A DNA stretch of 64,000 nt. Origin: an uncultured Gemmatimonadales bacterium (GTDB lineage Bacteria > Gemmatimonadota > Gemmatimonadetes > Gemmatimonadales > GWC2-71-9). The stretch spans positions 384,001 through 448,000 of the forward strand of contig CAVUAK010000002.1 of NCBI GenBank assembly GCA_963739455.1, given 5' to 3'. The position numbers were made by a program, and so were the translations under genes. The notes beneath the pieces are model-generated. The model made no database searches, was not told the DNA's origin, and saw only the letters and a program-made list of their open reading frames with translations. Of the stretch, positions 4,505 through 61,673 are shown in pieces. Position 1 is the first letter of the stretch. Every line of letters begins with the position of its first letter.

Positions 4505-5432
4505 CCAGGGAGTCCCCCCGCTTTCTTGCAGCCCCGCTCTGGCCGTGAAACTGCGCCTGGGCCAACAGCGCCAGCATCACGATCACGCCGGTCAGTGTTG
4601 ACCACAGTACCGCTCCAAGGAGCAGCCCGCGCGATCGTGGAAGCAGCGTCTTCGGGAGCGCGTCGAGCACGATCAATGCCGGAGTGGCCTCGAGCTCGCG
4701 CGCAGCAGCGGACTCACGGTCCGTGACTGCCTGAGAATAGCCGGTCTCGGCGGTGCGCAATTCGCGTTCGAGACGCTGCTCCGTGATCGAGGCCTCCGAG
4801 TACCGGCCCACCGTGCGGTTCGCTTCAAGGAAATGCCGCTGCGCTTCCTCCGCGACTGATAGCCGCCGTCCGGCACTGTCGACACGCAGATCCTGGGCAT
4901 GCTTCATCGCACTGGCCTGGGCGCGCGTCGCGTTGACGAATGCCGCGCTCGTCTCGTCGAGAAGTTTCGCGGTCATTTGTCGTACGAGCCCGCTGTCACG
5001 CGCAGAGACGCGAATAGTGACGAGACCACTTTGGAGATCTGCCGAGGCCGACACCGCGGTGCGCATGGTCTCGAGCAACGAGCGGTCGTTCACCCGACCG
5101 GGCCCGGCGTTGCGCAGCCGGTCCACATAGCGCCGGCCCGAATCGTCGGGCACTGAGCCGACGGCAATCAACACCCCGTCCAGGCGGGCCAGTCGCGCGA
5201 CCAAAACAGGCGTCGATTGCAGGCCACCCAGTCCGTTGGCACCAAGTACGCTGGCGGCGAGACTGGCTCCGCTCATGCTTGCGCGACTCGTGACCGGGGA
5301 CACCACCACGGTGCCATCGTAGGTGCGAGGACGGATCAGCCCGACCACGACCGAGAGAACCCCAATCGCCGCTGCCACGCCGACGATGAGGGGCGCCCGC
5401 ATTCGAACTATCGACACGGGATCCAAGTTCAT
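4494..5432 (-). CDS. Wzz/GumC-like polysaccharide co-polymerase (chain-length regulator), no kinase domain
   Basis: ATG 5432 (MNLDP) overlaps the upstream stop. N- and C-terminal TM helices flank a coiled-coil region; proline-containing LPKTLLPRSRG precedes the last TM. Confidence 0.65.
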   Translation of the reverse strand: MNLDPVSIVRMRAPLIVGVAAAIGVLSVVVGLIRPRTYDGTVVVSPVTSRASMSGASLAASVLGANGLGGLQSTPVLVARLARLDGVLIAVGSVPDDSGRRYVDRLRNAGPGRVNDRSLLETMRTAVSASADLQSGLVTIRVSARDSGLVRQMTAKLLDETSAAFVNATRAQASAMKHAQDLRVDSAGRRLSVAEEAQRHFLEANRTVGRYSEASITEQRLERELRTAETGYSQAVTDRESAAARELEATPALIVLDALPKTLLPRSRGLLLGAVLWSTLTGVIVMLALLAQAQFHGQSGAARKRGDSLDGG

Positions 5433-46487: not shown

Positions 46488-46736
46488 CTACTGTGACAGC
46501 CGCTTCGGCTCACCCGTAGACTGCGGCGGTGCCTGGCTCGCGTCCATTTGACGCGATGGAAGGCTCTGGTGCGAATCCTGGCGCATGACCTCGTCCTGGG
46601 TATCGGTCAGGCTCCTCTTGAACTCGCGGATCCCCTTCCCGATCGAGGCCCCAACCTCCGGCAGGCGCTTCGCCCCGAAAACGAGCAGCACCACCAGCAG
46701 GATGATCATGATCTCGGAAAAACCGAGGTTTCCCAT
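46488..46736 (-). CDS. tatA: Twin-arginine translocase TatA/TatE
   Basis: LLVFGAKRLPEVGASIGKGIREFK; GGAGG RBS. Confidence 0.95.
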   Translation of the reverse strand: MGNLGFSEIMIILLVVLLVFGAKRLPEVGASIGKGIREFKRSLTDTQDEVMRQDSHQSLPSRQMDASQAPPQSTGEPKRLSQ

Positions 46737-46745
46737 GGCGACCTC

Positions 46746-48003: not shown

Positions 48004-48007
<4 letters not shown>
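47018..48007 (-). CDS. Polyprenyl diphosphate synthase (IspB/HepT-like)
   Basis: GKMFRP, ELIHLATLVHDDSVD, RRG, KTA, FQMVDDLLD, GKPSGLD. Confidence 0.93.
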
Positions 48008-50650
<2,643 letters not shown>

Positions 50651-52311: not shown

Positions 52312-53442
52312 CTAGCGCATTCGAATCAGCTGCGGATTTCCCGGATCCGTCTGGAACGACCAGTCGATGATCGTGAATTCAGTGCCCACGTGCGTCGCTC
52401 GCACGGCACCGTAGCGCAGGAAGCCATCCGGCGACCCGGTGATCTGGATGACGTAGCCGTATCCCGGCAGCAGCTGGACAGGGGTGTGACTGTACCCGCC
52501 CACCGGTGCGATGTCGATGCTCGTCAGGTCGGGAATCGGACCGCCAGAATAGAGCGCCACCGAGGCCTCCGCGCGCACCGGCGTCAGCCAGAGCTGGCCG
52601 GCCCCATCGCGCTCGATGGAAAAATCGGCGCTGGGTGATGCGCCCGCGAGTACGAGGCCCAGTTCACTGTCTTGTGCCAGGCCATCGTTGTTCTGGTCGC
52701 GCCAGAAGCGGAAGCCGCTCTGCGCCGCGTCGAACTGTGAGGAGGTGATCGCAATGTTGCGCGCGTCAGGACGCGGGGTGTCGTCCACAATCGGCGACCA
52801 GAGGCTCTCGAAGCCCTCGATGGTCACCGCCGACACACCGAAACAGCGTGGGAAGCCATTGGGCAACGCCCCGGCAATGAACTCCGGGGCCACCGTGGTA
52901 CCCTCGAGCACCCAGCCGGTATCGAGGCAGAGACCGGTGTCGAGGTTGAACGGGGTGCTGAATATGCGATAGGTCCGGAAGCCGGCGGGGTCAGCCTCAA
53001 AAGGATTGTCCGTCCACGCCAGCGCCACCGCGCCGTTGAGGCTCGTACTGAACAGCTGGTTGACGCGTGGCAGGGTCAGCCGTTCGTCTACCGTCACGAC
53101 ATTGCTGCCCACCGACTCGAATCCGTCGAAGTCCACGGCCGTGACGTAGTACTGCAATTCCGGCACACCCTGGTCGTGGAAGCTGTTCGACGTGGTCGTG
53201 CCCCGCAGCACGAAGGCCTGTGACGTGTTGCTGCGCGAGTAGATGTTCCACACGTTGACGCTTCCATCGGTCACCTGGTCCCACTCCAACAGTGTCGCCA
53301 CCGGGATCGTGGCCGGCCCGCCCGAGGTCACGTCATAGAACAGGTTCGTGGGAGGTGGCAACGTTCCCCCTCCCGGCGCCACGATGTTGTTCGTGGTGCA
53401 GGCCGCGAGCAGCAGGAGCGCGAGCGAGAGCCGGCGGGGCAT
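52312..53442 (-). CDS. Hypothetical lipoprotein with two fibronectin-III-like modules
   Basis: MPRRLSLALLLLAA/C lipobox; duplicated W...Y.I...V[TS]AV..[DE]GFES pattern. Confidence 0.7.
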   Translation of the reverse strand: MPRRLSLALLLLAACTTNNIVAPGGGTLPPPTNLFYDVTSGGPATIPVATLLEWDQVTDGSVNVWNIYSRSNTSQAFVLRGTTTSNSFHDQGVPELQYYVTAVDFDGFESVGSNVVTVDERLTLPRVNQLFSTSLNGAVALAWTDNPFEADPAGFRTYRIFSTPFNLDTGLCLDTGWVLEGTTVAPEFIAGALPNGFPRCFGVSAVTIEGFESLWSPIVDDTPRPDARNIAITSSQFDAAQSGFRFWRDQNNDGLAQDSELGLVLAGASPSADFSIERDGAGQLWLTPVRAEASVALYSGGPIPDLTSIDIAPVGGYSHTPVQLLPGYGYVIQITGSPDGFLRYGAVRATHVGTEFTIIDWSFQTDPGNPQLIRMR

Positions 53443-53479
53443 GGCGTTGTTTCTCCGAGAGGTGATGCAAGGAGCGCTG

Positions 53480-53496
53480 AGCAGGGAGTATGCCAA
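53480..53496 (-). promoter_or_regulatory. Sigma54 (-24/-12) promoter of the lipoprotein gene
   Basis: Minus strand TTGGCATACTCCCTGCT (GG-N10-GC), ending 38 nt upstream of ATG 53442. Confidence 0.65.
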
Positions 53497-53607
53497 TGAG
53501 GGTGTGAAGACGTGAGGGCGTGAAGACGTGAGGCCTATCTTACGCGATACCAATGCCTTTCAGCATTCGGTCACCTCACCTCCTCACGTCTTCACGTCCT
53601 CACGTCT
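53497..53607. repeat. Inverted repeat built from ACGTGA[AG]G octamers
   Basis: 53508-53533 matches the reverse complement of 53582-53607 at 25/26 positions; 48-nt spacer. Confidence 0.85.
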
Positions 53608-53636: not shown

Positions 53637-56600
53637 TCACTGCTCGAACGTCGTCTGCTGGTAGTCATAGCGCAGCTCGGGCAGATCCGTCAGGAACACC
53701 GAGAAGAAGAACGCGAAGTTGCCGTTGGCATTCCGGACGAACCGGAATGACGCCCGCCATTCGTGAAGCTCGCGCGCCAGCGACACCGTCTGCGACTCGA
53801 AGCGCCCCTGGCTGAAGTTGTACTGCGCCTGCCACGACACAGCCCAGAACTGCGTGGGCGTGAATTGCAGCGAGTAGTTCAGGGAGACCTGGTCCTGCGG
53901 CGTGACGAGCGGCGCAGGCAGCGGCCGGAATCGCTGTACCGTGACGGCGAAATTCGAGGTGAAGCCACGCTGCCCCCCCGCCCCCGTGTTGCTGTAGCTC
54001 GACGCCGGCCGGATCGGCCGGCTCCCCTGGTTCTGCAGGTAGTTGTCCCGGTTCGGGTCGTTCAGGGTGCTCTGCAGTGCGCCCTGCGGCTGCCCACCTA
54101 CTCCCTTCATGGAACCGCCGAACAGTGAGCGCAGTGTCGCGCTCGAGATGCCGAAGGTCGCATTCAGGTTGCTGAGGAAGGGCGAGAACTGCGAGGTATC
54201 CACGCCGGCCAGGCCACGCCACAGGTCGATCCCGAACCCCAGCGTGAACCCCGGCAGCAGGTCGCTGAGCACCGAGTTCGTGATCTGCTGCGTGACCCAG
54301 CCGCTGCCGCCGGGCTCTCCCGCCCGCTGGAAGTTGTAGCTGAATGGGCTCGTCTGGATGCTCAACAGGCGAAACCGCCTCGTCTGGGTGCCGAGGGTAT
54401 CGTCCGGCGCGGGCTTGACCTTCACCTCGAAATTCTGGTTGAGTGCGAGGGTGAGGAGGTTCTCCGGCTGGCTGCGGAGCAGTTGTTCCTGGCCGGGCAG
54501 GGCGATCGCCGCGGCATACGCCGCCGGCACGGTCGCCGCCGGCGCAAACGACCATGTCAACAGCGGATTGATGCTGTGCCGCATGCGGCTCAGCCCGGGG
54601 ATGAAGCCGACGTTGAAGAAGGCGAAGAATGTCGGCGTCATCGACAGGCTGAACCGGGCGCGCTTTCCCTGCACCACCCAATCGCCGTCCGTGTTCCGGT
54701 TGCGGATGGCGAAGGGCCCCGACGTCACGTTCTGCACGCCGATGCTCGGCTGGATTTTCCAGGTGCCGTGCAACAGGAATGGCAGGTTGATGCCGGTGTC
54801 CCAGTCGAGCGAGCCCTGAAAGCGGTTGGCAAAATACCTGACCGTCGTGTCCGCCGGGTTGTCCGGGTCGGGCCCGAATGTGGAGTCCCGTCCACTGACA
54901 TTGGCGTCGGAGTAGCTCACCGAGTTCTGCCAGTTGAAGCTGCCGAAACGAAACGGCGTGGAAAGCCGGGCCGAGGTGGTGCGCGAATCGACCGTGAGTT
55001 GCACCGAGTCGATGGCGCCGCTCGGGGTCACGAACCTGAGGAACCCCCGAGGCTGGTCGAACGTCTGGTCCTGGCTGAAGGCAAACGCCGGCGACCAGGT
55101 CGAGTTGGAACCAAGGGCAATCGGCCTGGGCGTCACGTCGAGCGAAGGCAGTGTCTGCGTGACGCTCCCATTCGTGATGTCCTGCCGGCGGTTGCCGCCG
55201 ATGTTGACGGCGCCCCAGCGGTACTGCTTGGTGAAGCGCAACTGGCTGCTGATCTGCTGCGTGTTGATGAGTGGGTCGATGGCGTTGTTGTTGATGACCT
55301 GGGTATTGGTCGCATAGCCGATCGACAGGGCGATATTCGTCGTCAGGCTGAACTTCTGCGCATGGTCCCAGCGCAGCTGGAGGCTCGAGCCCCCGTCCGT
55401 CTCCCACTGCTTGTTGATGGCGAAGGTGCCACTGAGGAACCGGTTGAGCCAGCGGTAATCGGTCTGGAAGCCGAGGGCCACGTAGCGTCCCGAGAACCAG
55501 TTGATCCGCCCGGTTATGTCCATGTAGTCGTTGGTGGCCCAGTAGTAGCCCAGGTTCGTGATCTGCCGGGAATAGCTGGGGGACGGGCGGATGATGTCGG
55601 AGAATCCGAAGGCCGGGATGAGCAGTCCCGAATGCCGCCCGGGCCGCAGGTCCTGGAAGATGAACGGGAGCCAGAGGACCGGAACGTCCTGGATGTAGAG
55701 CACGACCGGCCGTGCCACCAGCACGGTGTTCGACACCCACTTGATCTCGCGCGCGCTGAAGTGGTAATGCGGAATCGGGAGGTCACAACTGGTGATGTCG
55801 CCGTGGCCGGCGAAGATACGGTTGTTGACCGAGTCCTTGGCCACATCACCGCGGAGGAACCAGGTGGTGCTGCCTTGCTGGAAGTTGGTGAGGGCGTCCT
55901 TGAAGACGCCGCGCTTTTCGCAGGTGTTGTACGCCATCTCCTCGCCCACCAGGACCTGGCCCTCGTTGAACACCCTCGGGTCACCGGTCGCCTCCAGCGA
56001 GCACTGCCGCTCCTCGTAGGTGATGTCCTCCGCCTCCATCGTCGTCCCCTCCCGCTCCGTCATCGCGTGACCGTTGAGCATGAGCTGACGCTGCTCCGCC
56101 AGGATGGCGGCGGAGTCGGCGCGGTACTTGGTGACGGTGTAGCCGGGGCGCTCGAGCAGGGACCGGTAAGCGGAATCCTCCGGCGCGAAGGATTGTGATG
56201 GAGCGGTGGGAAGGCCGAGCCGGCGGGCCTGCGCTGTGTCGAGCGCCTGGCCCGGCGCGCGGGCCGGGGGAGCGCGGGTCGTGTCCTGCCCCGCCACGCG
56301 TGCCGGCGGGACCGGGATACCCTGCCCCGCAGCCGGCGTCGCGAGTCCGCCCATCAGCAACGCAAGCAGGATCATCGGCAGCATGGCCGCCCGCTCGCTC
56401 CGGAGCCGGCGGCGCGCAATCAGGGCGGCGCCGGCCACCCCGATCTCGTACAGCAGGAGGAGCGGCGCCGTCATCATCAGCATCGAGAACACATCGGCGC
56501 CCGGCGACAGCACCGCACCGGCGATAAACGAGAGCACCACCGCGTAGCGCCGGAAGCGATGGAGGTCGGCAGGGGTGACGACACCGAGCGCCGCCAGGAT

Positions 56601-57134
56601 GATGATCACGAGCGGCAGCTCGAACGAGACGCCCAGCGCGAGGATGATCTGGAGCGCGAAGCCGAACCAGGCGTCGAACGTGATCATCGGCAGCAGGGAG
56701 TCGGCCTGGAAGCTGAAGAACACCTTCAGCGCCTGCGGCACCACGAAGACGTATCCGAGCGTCGCACCGACCAGGAACAGCCCGAGACCCGCCACGAGCG
56801 CCGGCAGGATGACCTTGCGCTCGCGATCGTAGAGTGCCGGCGAGAGGAATGCCCACGCCTGGTAAATGAGCACCGGCGACGCGAGCAGGAGCCCGACGAC
56901 GAACCCGAGCTTGAAGACGATCATGAGCGGCTCGGTTGGGCTCGTGAACACGAGCTTGCCACTCGGCAGGAAGGGCTCGATCGGGGCCTTGAGCAGCTGC
57001 ACCAGGTTCAGCCGGTCCACCAGCCAGAGCCCGACGCCGAACCCGACCACGACAGCCCCGAGGGCCCGCAGCAATCGCGTGCGGAGCTCCTCGAGGTGGT
57101 CGAGGAAGGGCATTTCGCCGCCGGGTGCCGTCAT
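53637..57134 (-). CDS. tatC: TatC fused via an internal signal-peptide-like segment to an LptD-like LPS assembly protein
   Basis: aa 1-245: MPFLDHLEELR, WAFLSPALY, FELP, RRYA, SPGAD, PLLLLYE. After aa ~271: OstA-like region, ITSCD..PHYHF, PVLWLPF, RHSGLLIP, beta-barrel ending RELHEWRASF...LPELRYDY. Confidence 0.85.
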   Translation of the reverse strand: MTAPGGEMPFLDHLEELRTRLLRALGAVVVGFGVGLWLVDRLNLVQLLKAPIEPFLPSGKLVFTSPTEPLMIVFKLGFVVGLLLASPVLIYQAWAFLSPALYDRERKVILPALVAGLGLFLVGATLGYVFVVPQALKVFFSFQADSLLPMITFDAWFGFALQIILALGVSFELPLVIIILAALGVVTPADLHRFRRYAVVLSFIAGAVLSPGADVFSMLMMTAPLLLLYEIGVAGAALIARRRLRSERAAMLPMILLALLMGGLATPAAGQGIPVPPARVAGQDTTRAPPARAPGQALDTAQARRLGLPTAPSQSFAPEDSAYRSLLERPGYTVTKYRADSAAILAEQRQLMLNGHAMTEREGTTMEAEDITYEERQCSLEATGDPRVFNEGQVLVGEEMAYNTCEKRGVFKDALTNFQQGSTTWFLRGDVAKDSVNNRIFAGHGDITSCDLPIPHYHFSAREIKWVSNTVLVARPVVLYIQDVPVLWLPFIFQDLRPGRHSGLLIPAFGFSDIIRPSPSYSRQITNLGYYWATNDYMDITGRINWFSGRYVALGFQTDYRWLNRFLSGTFAINKQWETDGGSSLQLRWDHAQKFSLTTNIALSIGYATNTQVINNNAIDPLINTQQISSQLRFTKQYRWGAVNIGGNRRQDITNGSVTQTLPSLDVTPRPIALGSNSTWSPAFAFSQDQTFDQPRGFLRFVTPSGAIDSVQLTVDSRTTSARLSTPFRFGSFNWQNSVSYSDANVSGRDSTFGPDPDNPADTTVRYFANRFQGSLDWDTGINLPFLLHGTWKIQPSIGVQNVTSGPFAIRNRNTDGDWVVQGKRARFSLSMTPTFFAFFNVGFIPGLSRMRHSINPLLTWSFAPAATVPAAYAAAIALPGQEQLLRSQPENLLTLALNQNFEVKVKPAPDDTLGTQTRRFRLLSIQTSPFSYNFQRAGEPGGSGWVTQQITNSVLSDLLPGFTLGFGIDLWRGLAGVDTSQFSPFLSNLNATFGISSATLRSLFGGSMKGVGGQPQGALQSTLNDPNRDNYLQNQGSRPIRPASSYSNTGAGGQRGFTSNFAVTVQRFRPLPAPLVTPQDQVSLNYSLQFTPTQFWAVSWQAQYNFSQGRFESQTVSLARELHEWRASFRFVRNANGNFAFFFSVFLTDLPELRYDYQQTTFEQ

Positions 57135-57150: not shown

Positions 57151-57936
57151 TCAGCGCCCGATGGCCTTCAACCGGTCGCGGGCAAGGGCCGCCTCGTCCG
57201 ACTTGGGATAACTCTTCAGGAGCTGGTTGTACGCGTCACGCGCCTCGGCCTTGTCACCATGACGCTCCGCCAGCAGGCCCAGTCCGTACAGCGCCGCGGG
57301 TGCCCGCGAGGACGTGGGATACTCCTTCACCACCTTGCGGTAGTACGCGGCCGCGGAATCGGGATTCTCCGACGAGAAACTCTGCCCCACGAAGTAGAGC
57401 GCATCGGGAACGAGTTCGCTCTTCGGATAGGCCTGCAGCATTTCGCGGAGGCCGGCCCGGCCGGTCGCCGCGCTGCCCCGACGCAGCTGGGACAGCGACG
57501 CATCGTACATCTGCTGCGCCGAGGCGGAAGCGGCCGGTACCGCGCCAGCCGAATCGGCCGGGGCGCCAGGCCCGGCCGGCATGGGACCGCCACCAACCGA
57601 CTCACCGCGCGCCTCCAGCTGCGAGCGCAATTCGGTGAGGCGACGCTGGCTTTGCCCCGTCAGCTCCTGCAGCTGCAGCAACTGCTGCTGCACCGCCAGC
57701 ATGTCGTTCGCCGTGCTCCCCTTCATTTCGTTGAGCGAACGCCGCGTGGCCGCCAGGGAGTCCATCATCTGCTGCTGCAGTACCAGGATCTGGCGCAGCT
57801 GTGCCGCGCTCGCCGAGTCGGCGCGCCGGCTATCGGCGCGCAGTACGTTGACCTGGGTCTCTACCTGCTGCACCTGCGCCGGCGTCGCACACGCAGCGAC
57901 ACCGGCGAGGCACGCAGCAGCGATGGCTCGTCTCAC
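57151..57936 (-). CDS. cpoB: Tol-Pal associated protein CpoB/YbgF
   Basis: Lipoprotein-like signal, coiled coil, TPRs (YPKSELVPDALYFVG, YPKSDEA), after pal. Confidence 0.88.
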   Translation of the reverse strand: MRRAIAAACLAGVAACATPAQVQQVETQVNVLRADSRRADSASAAQLRQILVLQQQMMDSLAATRRSLNEMKGSTANDMLAVQQQLLQLQELTGQSQRRLTELRSQLEARGESVGGGPMPAGPGAPADSAGAVPAASASAQQMYDASLSQLRRGSAATGRAGLREMLQAYPKSELVPDALYFVGQSFSSENPDSAAAYYRKVVKEYPTSSRAPAALYGLGLLAERHGDKAEARDAYNQLLKSYPKSDEAALARDRLKAIGR

Positions 57937-58506
57937 TGGGGCGAGACGAGGTTCGCCCCGCCGGCCGTGACCGTGAACTGGTCATTCCGGTTCTGGGCCC
58001 ACGCCGCCTCGGACTGGCCCGTGGCGATCGGACGCTCCGACCCATAGGAGACGGTCTCGATGCGGCTGCCATCGATGCCCTTGCCCACCAGGTACTGCTT
58101 CGCCGCCAGCGCACGACGGTTGCCAAGGGCGAGGTTGTACTCGGCGGAGCCGCGCTCATCGGCGTTGCCGGCCACCTGGATCTTGACGCGCCGGGTTGGC
58201 CGCGAGAATCGCCGCCTTGCGGTCGAGGTTCGCCTTGTCGCCCGGCTGGATGTCCGACTTGTCGTAGTCGAAGTGGATCAGCGCCGTCAGGTCAGCGTTC
58301 AGGGCCCGCGTACGCTCGGCCGCTGCGCGTGCCGCCGCTGCTGCCGCATCGTCGGTCGGCGCCGGAGCCGGCGCCGGGGCGACGGGAGCCGGGGCCGGTG
58401 CCGCGGCCGGCTTCGTTTCCGGCGCCGGTGCCTCGGGTGGCTTCTTGCCACCACAGGCGGCGACGAAAGCGAAAGCACAGACCGCAAGCAGCGAGGAACG
58501 TGTCAT
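57933..58506 (-). CDS. pal: Peptidoglycan-associated lipoprotein (frameshift near 58190)
   Basis: VAA/C lipobox, IHFDYDKS, GNADERGSAEYNLALGNRRA, SYGSERP, QNR. Confidence 0.93.
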
Positions 58507-58533
58507 GAGACTTCTCCTGTTGTAAGTGAACTG

Positions 58534-59820
58534 CTACGGGAGCCGGCGCGACCACGCGGGGAGCCGGGATGCCCCGCCCGTCGTGATCGCACGCACGCGC
58601 CCGGTTTCGATATCGATGACCCACACCTGCCGTTGTCCGGTGCGATCCGAGACAAACGCGATGTGCTTGCCGTCGGGTGCCCAGGTCGGGTCCTCGTTCC
58701 GGCCCGACGACGACAGCTGCTTGAGCCGGCGTCCCGCAATGTCGAGCACGAAGATCTGCGGCCCGCCTGACACTTCGCGATGGAACGCGAGCGACACCCC
58801 ATCCGGGGACCATTCCGGCGCATTGGAACTGCCGGTGACGCCGAAGTCGAACGGCACGAGCAATTCGGCGTTGGTGCCGTTCGCCTCCATGACATAGATC
58901 TGCGGCGGGCCGGCACGCGTCGAGACGAACGCGATGCGCTGGCCGTCGGGCGCATAGGTCGGTGAAAGGTTGTCCGCGAAGCGACCCGTGGTCAACCGCT
59001 GGACACAGCACATGTCTGAAACGTTGGCAACCTGGATGTTGGTGCCCTGCTCACCAGCCTGCGCGTAGGCGAGGAACTGGCCGTTGGGCGAGAACATCGG
59101 CGTGATGTTGAGCGCCGATTCCGTGCCCGGTACCACCTGCGGTGCCCCGCCCGAGAGACGCTGGATCAGGATCGGACCCTTGCCCTCGCCGAGCCGTGTA
59201 TAGGCGATGCGATCGGCCGTCGGCGACCAGGCGGGCGACAGCGCCGTCTCGCCGGCCGGCGTAAGGGCGGTGATGGCGGCCCCGTCGAAATCCATGTACA
59301 TGATCCGGCCGCCACTCACGTACGCGATTCGCGTCGCGGCAACGCCGGGCGTGCCGGTCACCCAGCGCACGACCTCGTCACTGGCCCGGTGCACCTGCAT
59401 GCGGAGCGCCGGATCGGAGGCGTCGGCGAAGCGGGTCTCCATGGTATTGAGCACCTTGCCGCCGGCGACGTCGTGCAGCCGTATCGTGGTCTGGGTGCCC
59501 GCCTGCGACAGCTCGAGGGCGAAGGCAGCACCGAAATTCTTGTAGAGCGCGTAGTTGAGCGGGCCCGATGGGCCCGCGGGTGCAGTCGCGCCGTCCGGCT
59601 GGATGATGGTCTCGAAGCGGTCGCTGAAATCGAGGTCGCGCTTCAGGATCGCGCGCACGGAATCGAGGCCCGCACCGGGAACGATGACCAGCGATGGCCT
59701 GTTACCCGGGTCGTAGCGCAGCGTCAGCCGCACTCCGCCCGCCTGCGGCACCGAGTCCTGCGCAGCAGCCGGCACGGCAACACCGGCCATCGCCGCGAGG
59801 AGTACCAGCGCGCGGCGCAT
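58534..59820 (-). CDS. tolB: TolB
   Basis: RDLDFSDRF, TRIAYV, repeated PD40 P.WSPDG motifs. Confidence 0.92.
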   Translation of the reverse strand: MRRALVLLAAMAGVAVPAAAQDSVPQAGGVRLTLRYDPGNRPSLVIVPGAGLDSVRAILKRDLDFSDRFETIIQPDGATAPAGPSGPLNYALYKNFGAAFALELSQAGTQTTIRLHDVAGGKVLNTMETRFADASDPALRMQVHRASDEVVRWVTGTPGVAATRIAYVSGGRIMYMDFDGAAITALTPAGETALSPAWSPTADRIAYTRLGEGKGPILIQRLSGGAPQVVPGTESALNITPMFSPNGQFLAYAQAGEQGTNIQVANVSDMCCVQRLTTGRFADNLSPTYAPDGQRIAFVSTRAGPPQIYVMEANGTNAELLVPFDFGVTGSSNAPEWSPDGVSLAFHREVSGGPQIFVLDIAGRRLKQLSSSGRNEDPTWAPDGKHIAFVSDRTGQRQVWVIDIETGRVRAITTGGASRLPAWSRRLP

Positions 59821-60545
59821 CACTGGCGCGGCTCGAAGACGAATGTCACGGGGAGGACGTTGGCATCCCACCCGTCAGGCAGCGGGCCGAATGCCTTCCC
59901 GTTCCCTGCCGCCTCGATCGCACCCTGCGCCTCGAGGTCGAAACTGAAGTTGCCTGAACGCTTGAGGAATCGAATGTCAGCCACCGAACCGTCCTTGAGG
60001 ATCAGGAACGCGACCTCGGCGCGAAGCCGGTTGTTGGGCGCGTTCCATCGCCGGAGCACTTCGTTCATGATGTTCCGGAGATACTCCGGATAGGGAAACT
60101 CGATCCCGGGAATCTTGATGTTCGCGACGTCAGTGCCGGTGCCAGGCGTCTCGCCGGGCAACGGCTGCGCCTCACTCTTCGTGACCGGCGTCTTCTCCAC
60201 CGGCTTCTCCGACGCCTGCACCGGCTTTGTGGGCGTCGGCGCCGGTTCCGCCTTGGCCTTCGGCTTCACCGCTTCAGCCTTCGTCGGCTTCGCGGGCGCC
60301 GGGGCCGGCGCCTCAGCCGGCGGCGCAGGTTCGGGCGGTCGGGTGACGGCCTCTGGAGCGGCACGACGTGCCGTCGTCGGCAGCGGTGCCGCCACCAGCT
60401 CGACGGCATACACCGGCGGGCCGATGACCGGCTTCGGGATCACGACAAAGAAGAGCAGGACGGCCGCCACGTGAACGACCAGCGACCCGGTCATGCCGAC
60501 CGTGGCCGAGGGTCCGTCAACGGCGTACGCGCCCCTGCCCTTCAC
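59820..60545 (-). CDS. tolA: TolA/TonB-like energy transducer
   Basis: TM with SLVVH, Pro/Ala/Lys linker, C-terminal SGNFSFD..A..A domain. Confidence 0.8.
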   Translation of the reverse strand: MKGRGAYAVDGPSATVGMTGSLVVHVAAVLLFFVVIPKPVIGPPVYAVELVAAPLPTTARRAAPEAVTRPPEPAPPAEAPAPAPAKPTKAEAVKPKAKAEPAPTPTKPVQASEKPVEKTPVTKSEAQPLPGETPGTGTDVANIKIPGIEFPYPEYLRNIMNEVLRRWNAPNNRLRAEVAFLILKDGSVADIRFLKRSGNFSFDLEAQGAIEAAGNGKAFGPLPDGWDANVLPVTFVFEPRQ

Positions 60546-60964
60546 TTCGATTCCTCATCCTCGGCCACGAGGCCCAGGTTGCGCACGCCGGAGTTCCGGA
60601 TGATGGCCACAACGCGCACGACGTCGCCGTATGAGGCCCGGTTGTCGGCGCGGAGATAGACGGCTTCGGGCTTCCGCGTCGCCACGATGGAGCGGAAGGT
60701 TGCCCGGAAGTCGCGGTAGCTCACCGGCGTCTCATCGAGGAAGATCTTTCCCGTCCGGTCGAGCGACACCACGATGCCCTGCTTGGCGTTCATCGGCTTC
60801 GCAGCGGCCTTTGGCAGGTCCACATCGACGCCGCCCTGCATGATCGGCGCGGCGATCATGAAGATGATCAGCAGCACGAAGGCAACGTCCACCAGCGACG
60901 TGACGTTGACCTCGGCATTCAGGGCCAGGTCGTCGTCGCCGCGGAACCCGCTCAGCGCCCCCAC
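60542..60964 (-). CDS. tolR: TolR/ExbD
   Basis: NVTSLVDVAFVLLIIFMIAAP, LRAD, YGDVV. Confidence 0.9.
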   Translation of the reverse strand: MGALSGFRGDDDLALNAEVNVTSLVDVAFVLLIIFMIAAPIMQGGVDVDLPKAAAKPMNAKQGIVVSLDRTGKIFLDETPVSYRDFRATFRSIVATRKPEAVYLRADNRASYGDVVRVVAIIRNSGVRNLGLVAEDEESK

Positions 60965-60965
60965 G

Positions 60966-61673
60966 TCAGACCATCCCCTCGCGTGCCATGGTGCCGATCA
61001 ACTCGGCGGCAAATCCCTCGAGCTCACCCGCCAGCATGCGAACCTTGTTGACGTAGAGGTTGTACGCGATGACGGCAGGGATGGCCGCGGCCAGTCCCGC
61101 GACGGTGGCAATGAGCGCCTCGGCCACACCGGGCGCCACTGCGCTGATGTTGCCGGACCCCTTCGACGAGATGCCGATGAAGGCATCCATGACGCCGAGC
61201 ACCGTGCCCATCAGCCCCATGAGCGGCCCCACCGCACCCACCGTGGCGAGCCACGGGATGTAGCGACTGAGCATGTCCTTCTCGGCCGAGACTTCCTTCA
61301 TGAGGACCAGCTTGAGCGACTCGAGCTGCGTGGACGTCAGCGGCGTGCGCGCCACTTCCTCCTTGAGTGCACCCGGCCGCAGTTCGCTGTAGAAGTTGAT
61401 CGCCTCGCGGAACAGCCGGTTGTACGGCGACGGCGGCTGCTTCATGGCGGCGTGATAGCCTTCCTGCAGGCGCGTGGTGCGCTCCAGTTCGGCGAAGAAC
61501 TTTCCGCCCTGACGGTGCAGGCGGCGGAATTGCCACCACTTGAGCACGATGATGAACCAGGCGATCAGCGAGAAGACCAGCAGGATGGCGAGCACCACCT
61601 TGGTCTCGACACTCGAGATGAGCAGGAGCTCGAGCGGAGTGGTTGGCAGGGCGCCGCCGACCTGGAGCATCAT
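60966..61673 (-). CDS. tolQ: TolQ/ExbB
   Basis: LATVGAVGPLMGLMGTV, VAPGVAEALIATVAGLAAAIPAVIAYN. Confidence 0.92.
   Translation of the reverse strand: MMLQVGGALPTTPLELLLISSVETKVVLAILLVFSLIAWFIIVLKWWQFRRLHRQGGKFFAELERTTRLQEGYHAAMKQPPSPYNRLFREAINFYSELRPGALKEEVARTPLTSTQLESLKLVLMKEVSAEKDMLSRYIPWLATVGAVGPLMGLMGTVLGVMDAFIGISSKGSGNISAVAPGVAEALIATVAGLAAAIPAVIAYNLYVNKVRMLAGELEGFAAELIGTMAREGMV

Follow-up and report, generated by a model that had tools for sequence, protein, structure and literature searches.

How can a protein of the inner membrane and a β-barrel of the outer membrane be made as one chain? This question is raised by a single open reading frame (ORF) in a 64,000-nucleotide window from an uncultured Gemmatimonadales bacterium (the whole stretch of DNA analysed; positions 384,001 to 448,000 of contig CAVUAK010000002.1, assembly GCA_963739455.1), in which TatC, the core of the twin-arginine translocation (Tat) system, is followed in frame by LptD, the outer-membrane translocon for lipopolysaccharide (LPS). 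An initial annotation, made from the letters alone, had described a polyprotein with an internal export signal. The fusion is real, lineage-wide and apparently undescribed in the literature covered, and we assign a probability of about 0.82 to its being a precursor that is cut by signal peptidase I (SPase I), which would free LptD and leave TatC with a seventh, spent helix. The mechanism is most likely an ordinary one.

Two folds in one reading frame

Translation, Pfam, TIGR00945 and Foldseek bore out the proposed layout of TatC followed by LptD in one uninterrupted ORF of 1165 amino acids (53637–57134, minus strand), which was the sole TatC and the sole LptD found in the genome (83.7% complete). 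The N-terminal moiety matched Pfam TatC (PF00902, residues 12–224, E = 1e-61, 208.8 bits with a cut-off of 25.1), NCBIfam TIGR00945 (202.1 bits, cut-off 132.7) and, by phmmer, solved TatC structures (E = 1e-47). The signal-binding and polar residues conserved in TatC, with counterparts in E. coli, were all present in the alignment (H13, E16, R18, R20, F96, E105, E172, D214 and E230). For the LptD moiety, Pfam LptD_2 (PF19838) matched residues 473–936 (E = 2.7e-33, 115.8 bits, cut-off 22.5), the cut-offs of the proteobacterial LptD equivalogs were not reached (PRK03761, 21.7 versus 683; PRK04423, 22.7 versus 944), and phmmer with the mature protein returned no match in the PDB (best E 0.73), where LptD was recognised by fold search alone.

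An AlphaFold2 model built from a 125-sequence alignment (mean pLDDT 83.6, pTM 0.60) comprised a helical TatC core, a low-confidence stretch at residues 251–295 (pLDDT <50), an all-β periplasmic domain and a large barrel. Its six-helix part resembled 4b4a (Foldseek TM(target) 0.82, root-mean-square deviation 3.2), and the top 15 Foldseek matches were all LptD or LptDE structures (E from 5.4e-25 to 7e-18), followed by TatC (E = 3.5e-12). LptD barrels are 26-stranded; an eye count from the element list of the model, in which membrane strands are not separable, gave about 28 long strands past residue 524. Cysteines of LptD were confined to positions 378, 405 and 450. Both folds are, as modelled, intact.

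The initial annotation had cautioned that the assembly contains many indels, so that a single one might have deleted a tatC stop at 56372–56374 and created the fusion artificially. The ATGA that it had pointed out is present (56375–56372) and encodes M254. Frameshifts do occur elsewhere in this assembly, in pal and in rseP (three pieces), and in this respect the caveat held. A search for the reads behind this assembly did not find them; at best a run shared 0.12 of its words, and the four runs examined proved to be contigs of relatives. At the joint, by contrast, the caveat failed. Both domains occurred in 119 of the 120 best-listed homologues including the query (118 of the 119 others; 1161 matches among 8000 scored candidates), those with names among the best 120 being annotated as 'TatC' of Gemmatimonadales. 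Relatives at 91% identity carry the junction in frame as here, congeneric genomes were fused in 3/3 cases, and positions 56125–57007 are covered, with 78 substitutions and no gap, by an 883-nucleotide contig that an independent run yielded for a relative. An artefact as the cause of the family-wide pattern is refuted by these homologues, congeners and the gap-free contig, and for this assembly, too, we give it next to no chance of being correct. Five genomes of genus g16 with a '1 TAG' flag had been considered as re-splits at the joint; this was rejected, all five being fused there.

Spread, gains and losses of the fusion

The whole protein served as query against 300 genomes of the phylum and the TatC part against 277 of these, for which the length of the open frame was read. 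In the family to which the window belongs, 112 of the 125 sampled genomes were fused (110/123 without the unpublished G057 and G182). Long proteins with both domains, for which the initial annotation had proposed a search, were indeed frequent, since 101 of these 112 had a TatC frame of at least 1000 amino acids; nine more crossed the joint up to a contig break and two were assigned on inspection. The rest of the family consisted of four genomes with split but adjacent genes, six in which cpoB is followed by a TatC-less LptD and another tatC lies elsewhere, and three that were not assessable. A second tatC was not found with this TatC query in 111/112 fused genomes. Fusions were rare outside the family, with three among the 70 genomes with a match in other families of the order (72 searched), and one among 78 with a match in the rest of the phylum (80 searched with TatC, 23 with the whole protein alone). 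Separate tatC and lptD genes in relatives, which the initial annotation had named as grounds for refutation, are thus not the pattern within the family and are mostly the pattern in other Gemmatimonadota. No TatC was seen near LptD in a small sample of 30 loci (L032–L061), nearly all of other phyla. In eleven loci from other phyla (L032, L035, L038–L041, L046, L047, L051, L053 and L055), an extra open frame of 400–900 codons precedes the matched LptD region.

In these other Gemmatimonadota, tatC and lptD are mostly neighbours with a 4-nucleotide stop/start overlap, and LptD has its own signal. In 51 of the 62 distinct adjacent split pairs compared, lptD is read in the −1 frame and overlaps the end of tatC at its stop codon, with ATG, GTG or TTG in 40 and CTG in nine. 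These comparisons show that the ancestral state in Gemmatimonadota was a tatC whose stop is overlapped by the start of a following lptD in the −1 frame; such an overlapping pair is probably translationally coupled. Because the two genes overlap in this way, one indel turns a pair into a fusion or back. The CTG over the tatC stop in nine pairs (including L130, L131, L140, L141, L142 and L147) suggests that in those pairs lptD is initiated at CTG or starts at another place.

In a FastTree phylogeny of TatC, the resident TatCs of the family formed one clade (support 0.92), which included one unfused sequence of a sister family. Split TatCs were nested among fused ones in three places, and fused TatCs of other families occurred in three separate places among split relatives. 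This topology suggests three further fusions and three re-splits, an event number that is only an estimate because the tree is based on a single gene. Seven 'other' tatC copies from genomes of the family (L171–L177, in G066, G025, G033, G172, G227, G236 and G045) formed a clade inside a neighbouring family and, judging from this placement, were apparently acquired. In six of the seven genomes such a copy replaces the fused TatC; G045 carries the two kinds together. No tatA was present near 9/10 second or replacement tatC loci within the 3.7–7.7 kb examined.

In the TatC-less loci, LptD starts where tatC started. At L015 (about 4770–5000, plus strand), LptD opens with an N-terminal motif of TatC that is near-perfect and lies in frame ahead of the signal, a score that 0/200 shuffles reached, and no tatC was found in this genome. 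From its sequence, L015 is best described as an in-frame deletion of TatC from a fusion. At another locus (L150/L160; G188:C111:75113-76672), two tandem tatC genes stand before an in-frame lptD, with a stop codon alone between them.

The fusion is tolerated rather than needed: since the link has been made and broken repeatedly, a required 1:1 coupling of Tat and LPS assembly, as envisaged in the initial annotation, is unlikely. The unfused state is already an overlapping pair, and some lineages have lost the TatC part and rely on an unrelated tatC at another locus.

The joint as a retained signal peptide

We compared 100 distinct fused joints from genome loci using a rule-based signal detector of our own. 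The joint of the window, laid out as initially described (Table 1), shows the features of a Sec/SPase I signal under this rule: a basic n-region, a hydrophobic h-region, a Pro/Gly turn, small residues at −3 and −1 and no Pro at +1. A small or aliphatic −3 and a small −1 residue followed by Gln after the hydrophobic core occurred in 99/100 joints compared with 27% of composition shuffles, and the strict AxA|Q form in 49/100 compared with 4%. The −1 residue was Ala in 87 joints, Gly in 10 and Ser in 2, and mean identity over residues −20 to −1 was 27%. Because the joint search pattern itself required Gln, conservation of this residue was tested in two further ways: when 125 LptDs, fused as well as stand-alone, were aligned, conservation of Q271 reached at least 90%, and a crude genome scan blind to Gln returned a +1 Gln in 99/206 signal-like N-termini (48%) versus a background of 7.2%. 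Fused joints also had the geometry of stand-alone LptD signals, as seen from the median uncharged run (21 versus 19.5 residues), Pro/Gly at −7 to −4 (96% in both) and peak 19-residue hydropathy (1.74 versus 1.71). On these sequence comparisons, the joint is LptD's own signal peptide, under selection, and the internal export signal with probable release of LptD by SPase I that had been proposed at the outset agrees with both site grammar and geometry. Counted from the basic residue that comes first after transmembrane helix 6 (TM6), the Gln lay at a median distance of 28 residues (range 23–62), and long tail-plus-signal joints were kept in two fusions of another family (L156 and L157); the long-standing fusion of the family seems to have been streamlined, with the basic tail of TatC serving as n-region.

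We infer insertion, translocation and cleavage from the sequence together with established Sec, SPase I and BAM (β-barrel assembly machinery) biology, on which the steps of the precursor lean. As the overlap geometry implies, one indel would have removed the tatC stop and joined the cytoplasmic C-tail of TatC to the Sec signal of LptD. The six helices of TatC would be inserted co-translationally at SecYEG, and the old LptD signal would enter as a seventh, N-in/C-out segment that opens translocation of the 895-amino-acid LptD. LepB, the SPase I encoded in the genome, would cut at A-A-G|Q271. Free LptD would then reach the outer membrane, be assembled by BAM with LptE, and work with LptE and LptC, both of which are encoded in the genome above cut-off (PF04390 and PF06835, respectively). 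TatC would remain in the inner membrane with its spent helix, which RseP may trim.

Several observations weigh against a cleaved precursor or its inferred history. The joint of the window has Gly at −1, a minority residue (10/99), and the uncharged run of about 21 residues before the site would be long enough for an anchor, as is the run of stand-alone signals. The signal detector is a crude rule with +1 Gln built into the joint search pattern, and it is an imperfect marker, as only 46/62 stand-alone LptDs passed it. The genomes behind the joint and fusion counts are kin, so that these counts are not independent, and the TatC tree comprises 83 of the TatC sequences for a single gene, with some weak nodes. 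Finally, a TatC remnant was clear in just one of nine distinct TatC-less loci; two others were weak (L167 and L168; 0/200 shuffles), two borderline (3 and 4 of 200) and four had none.

If the seventh segment were an anchor, an uncut or slowly cut chain would tether TatC in the inner membrane to LptD folded in the outer membrane. About 64 residues, 25 of them disordered, separate Q271 from the first jellyroll strand and the hydrophobic run measures about 21 residues, so that, given the width of the periplasm, a tether is geometrically conceivable. However, an anchor needs neither the −3/−1 rule nor the +1 Gln, which were kept in 99/100 joints at 27% identity elsewhere; stand-alone LptDs have the same linker after an N-terminal signal, and in lineages that re-split or lost TatC the segment serves as a normal N-terminal signal. 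We consider such a tether quite improbable. Only slightly less credit is due to separate synthesis of LptD by internal translation initiation, for example at Met251 or Met254, which would make the fusion merely formal. ATG codons stand at both residues here, 47/100 joints have some in-frame ATG, GTG or TTG ahead of the h-region, and split pairs start lptD at about the same place. Yet in 53/100 joints no in-frame start lies anywhere from the first basic residue to the h-region, a Shine-Dalgarno-like 4-mer accompanies a start in only 7/100, close relatives have Val, Thr or Ala in place of Met251, and the LptD of L015 uses the start of tatC; moreover, a TatC-LptD read-through product would remain.

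Tat signals adopt an N-in/C-out topology and carry the consensus RR followed by x-F-L. The initial annotation had proposed the RRRLR stretch as a tethered twin-arginine ligand, and the Arg-rich seventh helix might, before or after cleavage, occupy the signal-binding site of TatC and in this way gate or regulate Tat, or LptD might be exported via Tat. The topology would fit, and RR occurs in 88/100 joints; it is, however, equally common in unfused TatC tails (59/72) and missing from 12/100 joints. RRxF[LI] was found in 0/100 joints and a loose Tat motif in 5/100 compared with 6/72 unfused tails, whereas the three Tat-like signals of the genome are all RRxF (a form that the search pattern required). 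In the model, the arginines prolong TM6 in one helix spanning 215–261. The proposed ligand thus found no support, and a role of this kind is very doubtful. That the joint is active beyond mere survival, be it as a persistent trans-envelope TatC-LptD chain or as an Arg-rich seventh helix that gates Tat and ties it to synthesis of the LPS translocon, strikes us as unlikely overall.

Table 1 Features of the tatC-lptD locus and neighbouring genes (window coordinates).
Feature	Position	Strand	Basis or remark
tatC-lptD fusion ORF, 1165 aa	53637..57134	(-)	Translation, genome search
TatC moiety, residues 1-238, six-helix core	56421..57134	(-)	Pfam/NCBIfam, phmmer, Foldseek
Basic stretch R241-R248, cytoplasmic end of TatC TM6, doubling as n-region	56391..56414	(-)	Joint comparison
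h-region A249-L264, retained LptD signal, seventh membrane segment	56343..56390	(-)	Joint comparison; pLDDT <50 for 251-295
c-region A265-G270 and predicted SPase I site A268-A269-G270/Q271	56322..56342; Q271 codon 56324-56322	(-)	Alignment, site pattern
Pro-rich low-complexity N-terminus of mature LptD, 271-295	56250..56324	(-)	Disordered in model
Periplasmic all-β OstA-like jellyroll domain, ~335-495	55650..56132	(-)	Model strands; Foldseek to full-length LptD
LptD β-barrel, ~524-1162	53649..55565	(-)	Pfam, model, Foldseek
tolQ-tolR-tolA-like-tolB-pal-cpoB cluster, upstream of fusion	57151..61673	(-)	Pfam/NCBIfam; conserved beside tatC(-lptD) in relatives
tatA, single TatA/B/E match of the genome (PF02416)	46491..46745	(-)	~7 kb downstream of fusion, same strand

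Known counterparts and genomic surroundings

By analogy, the closest precedent of TatC-LptD is the cytochrome b-c1 precursor of Bradyrhizobium japonicum, encoded by fbcH, in which one gene reportedly (Thony-Meyer, James and Hennecke, 1991) specifies a polytopic inner-membrane protein, an internal signal that is cut and a second protein. The same arrangement in a single ORF is seen here in sequence and model. In contrast to TatC-LptD, both products of fbcH reportedly remain inner-membrane proteins and belong to a single complex, whereas the chain described here would release an outer-membrane β-barrel. TatC and LptD are not known to share a complex, and their fusion has recurred and reverted across the phylum. 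The split tatC-lptD pairs of other Gemmatimonadota share with the fusion the order after cpoB, the signal geometry and often the +1 Gln; they differ in their stop/start overlap, in the free acidic/Ala tail of TatC and in an LptD with its own start and n-region. Compared with known TatC proteins (PF00902, TIGR00945; 4b4a, 4hts, 9dzz), the fusion has the six-helix core and the signal-binding and polar residues in common, and differs by a C-terminal seventh hydrophobic segment and an 895-amino-acid passenger. With LptD (PF19838; 8h1s, 9kn3, 4q35; best Foldseek E 5.4e-25) it shares the N-terminal β-jellyroll and the large barrel, and stand-alone LptDs have a similar Pro-rich segment after the signal. 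It differs in an internal rather than N-terminal signal, in an identity of about 10–12% to solved LptDs, and in lacking the cysteines for jellyroll-to-barrel interdomain disulfides like those of E. coli LptD.

In Bacteroidetes, too, a large share of the exported proteins have Gln as the +1 residue of the SPase I site (the Q-rule; PMC5837995). The +1 Gln bias of this Gemmatimonadota genome is Q-rule-like, and that article does not mention Gemmatimonadetes. Among glutaminyl cyclases, the type II family was not found in this 84%-complete genome, in which 15 M28 matches are candidates. In the mainly open-access literature covered, no description of a TatC-LptD fusion was found, and neither 'fusion' nor 'fused' occurs in the accessible part of a TatC survey (PMC3827258).

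In the tol cluster upstream of the fusion, pal lies in two reading frames (57933–58506, minus strand) that are broken near 58180, probably by an indel of the assembly. Likewise, the rseP homologue is spread over three frames (G000:C2:285558-286912, minus strand), probably also by assembly indels. A lipoprotein-like gene (52312–53553, minus strand) without a Pfam or NCBIfam match stands directly after lptD in most loci of the family and is a possible Lpt or envelope accessory. Further downstream, the overlapping frames 48004–50094 and 49697–50650 (together 48004–50650, minus strand) look like one acidic protein rich in tetratricopeptide repeats that was broken by an indel.

If the cleavage is true, bacteria would have a natural precursor in which an outer-membrane β-barrel is freed from a polytopic inner-membrane protein. 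LptD is normally exported post-translationally; here it could follow a membrane protein into export during translation and nonetheless arrive at BAM, and TatC would function with an extra C-terminal helix. The locus also illustrates a simple route by which overlapping genes can fuse and re-split if the second gene supplies a signal peptide of its own. Because public annotation names the fusions 'TatC' only, LptD seems to be missing in a common soil lineage. One large family of uncultured Gemmatimonadota makes TatC and LptD as one chain, which is most likely cut into the usual two proteins.

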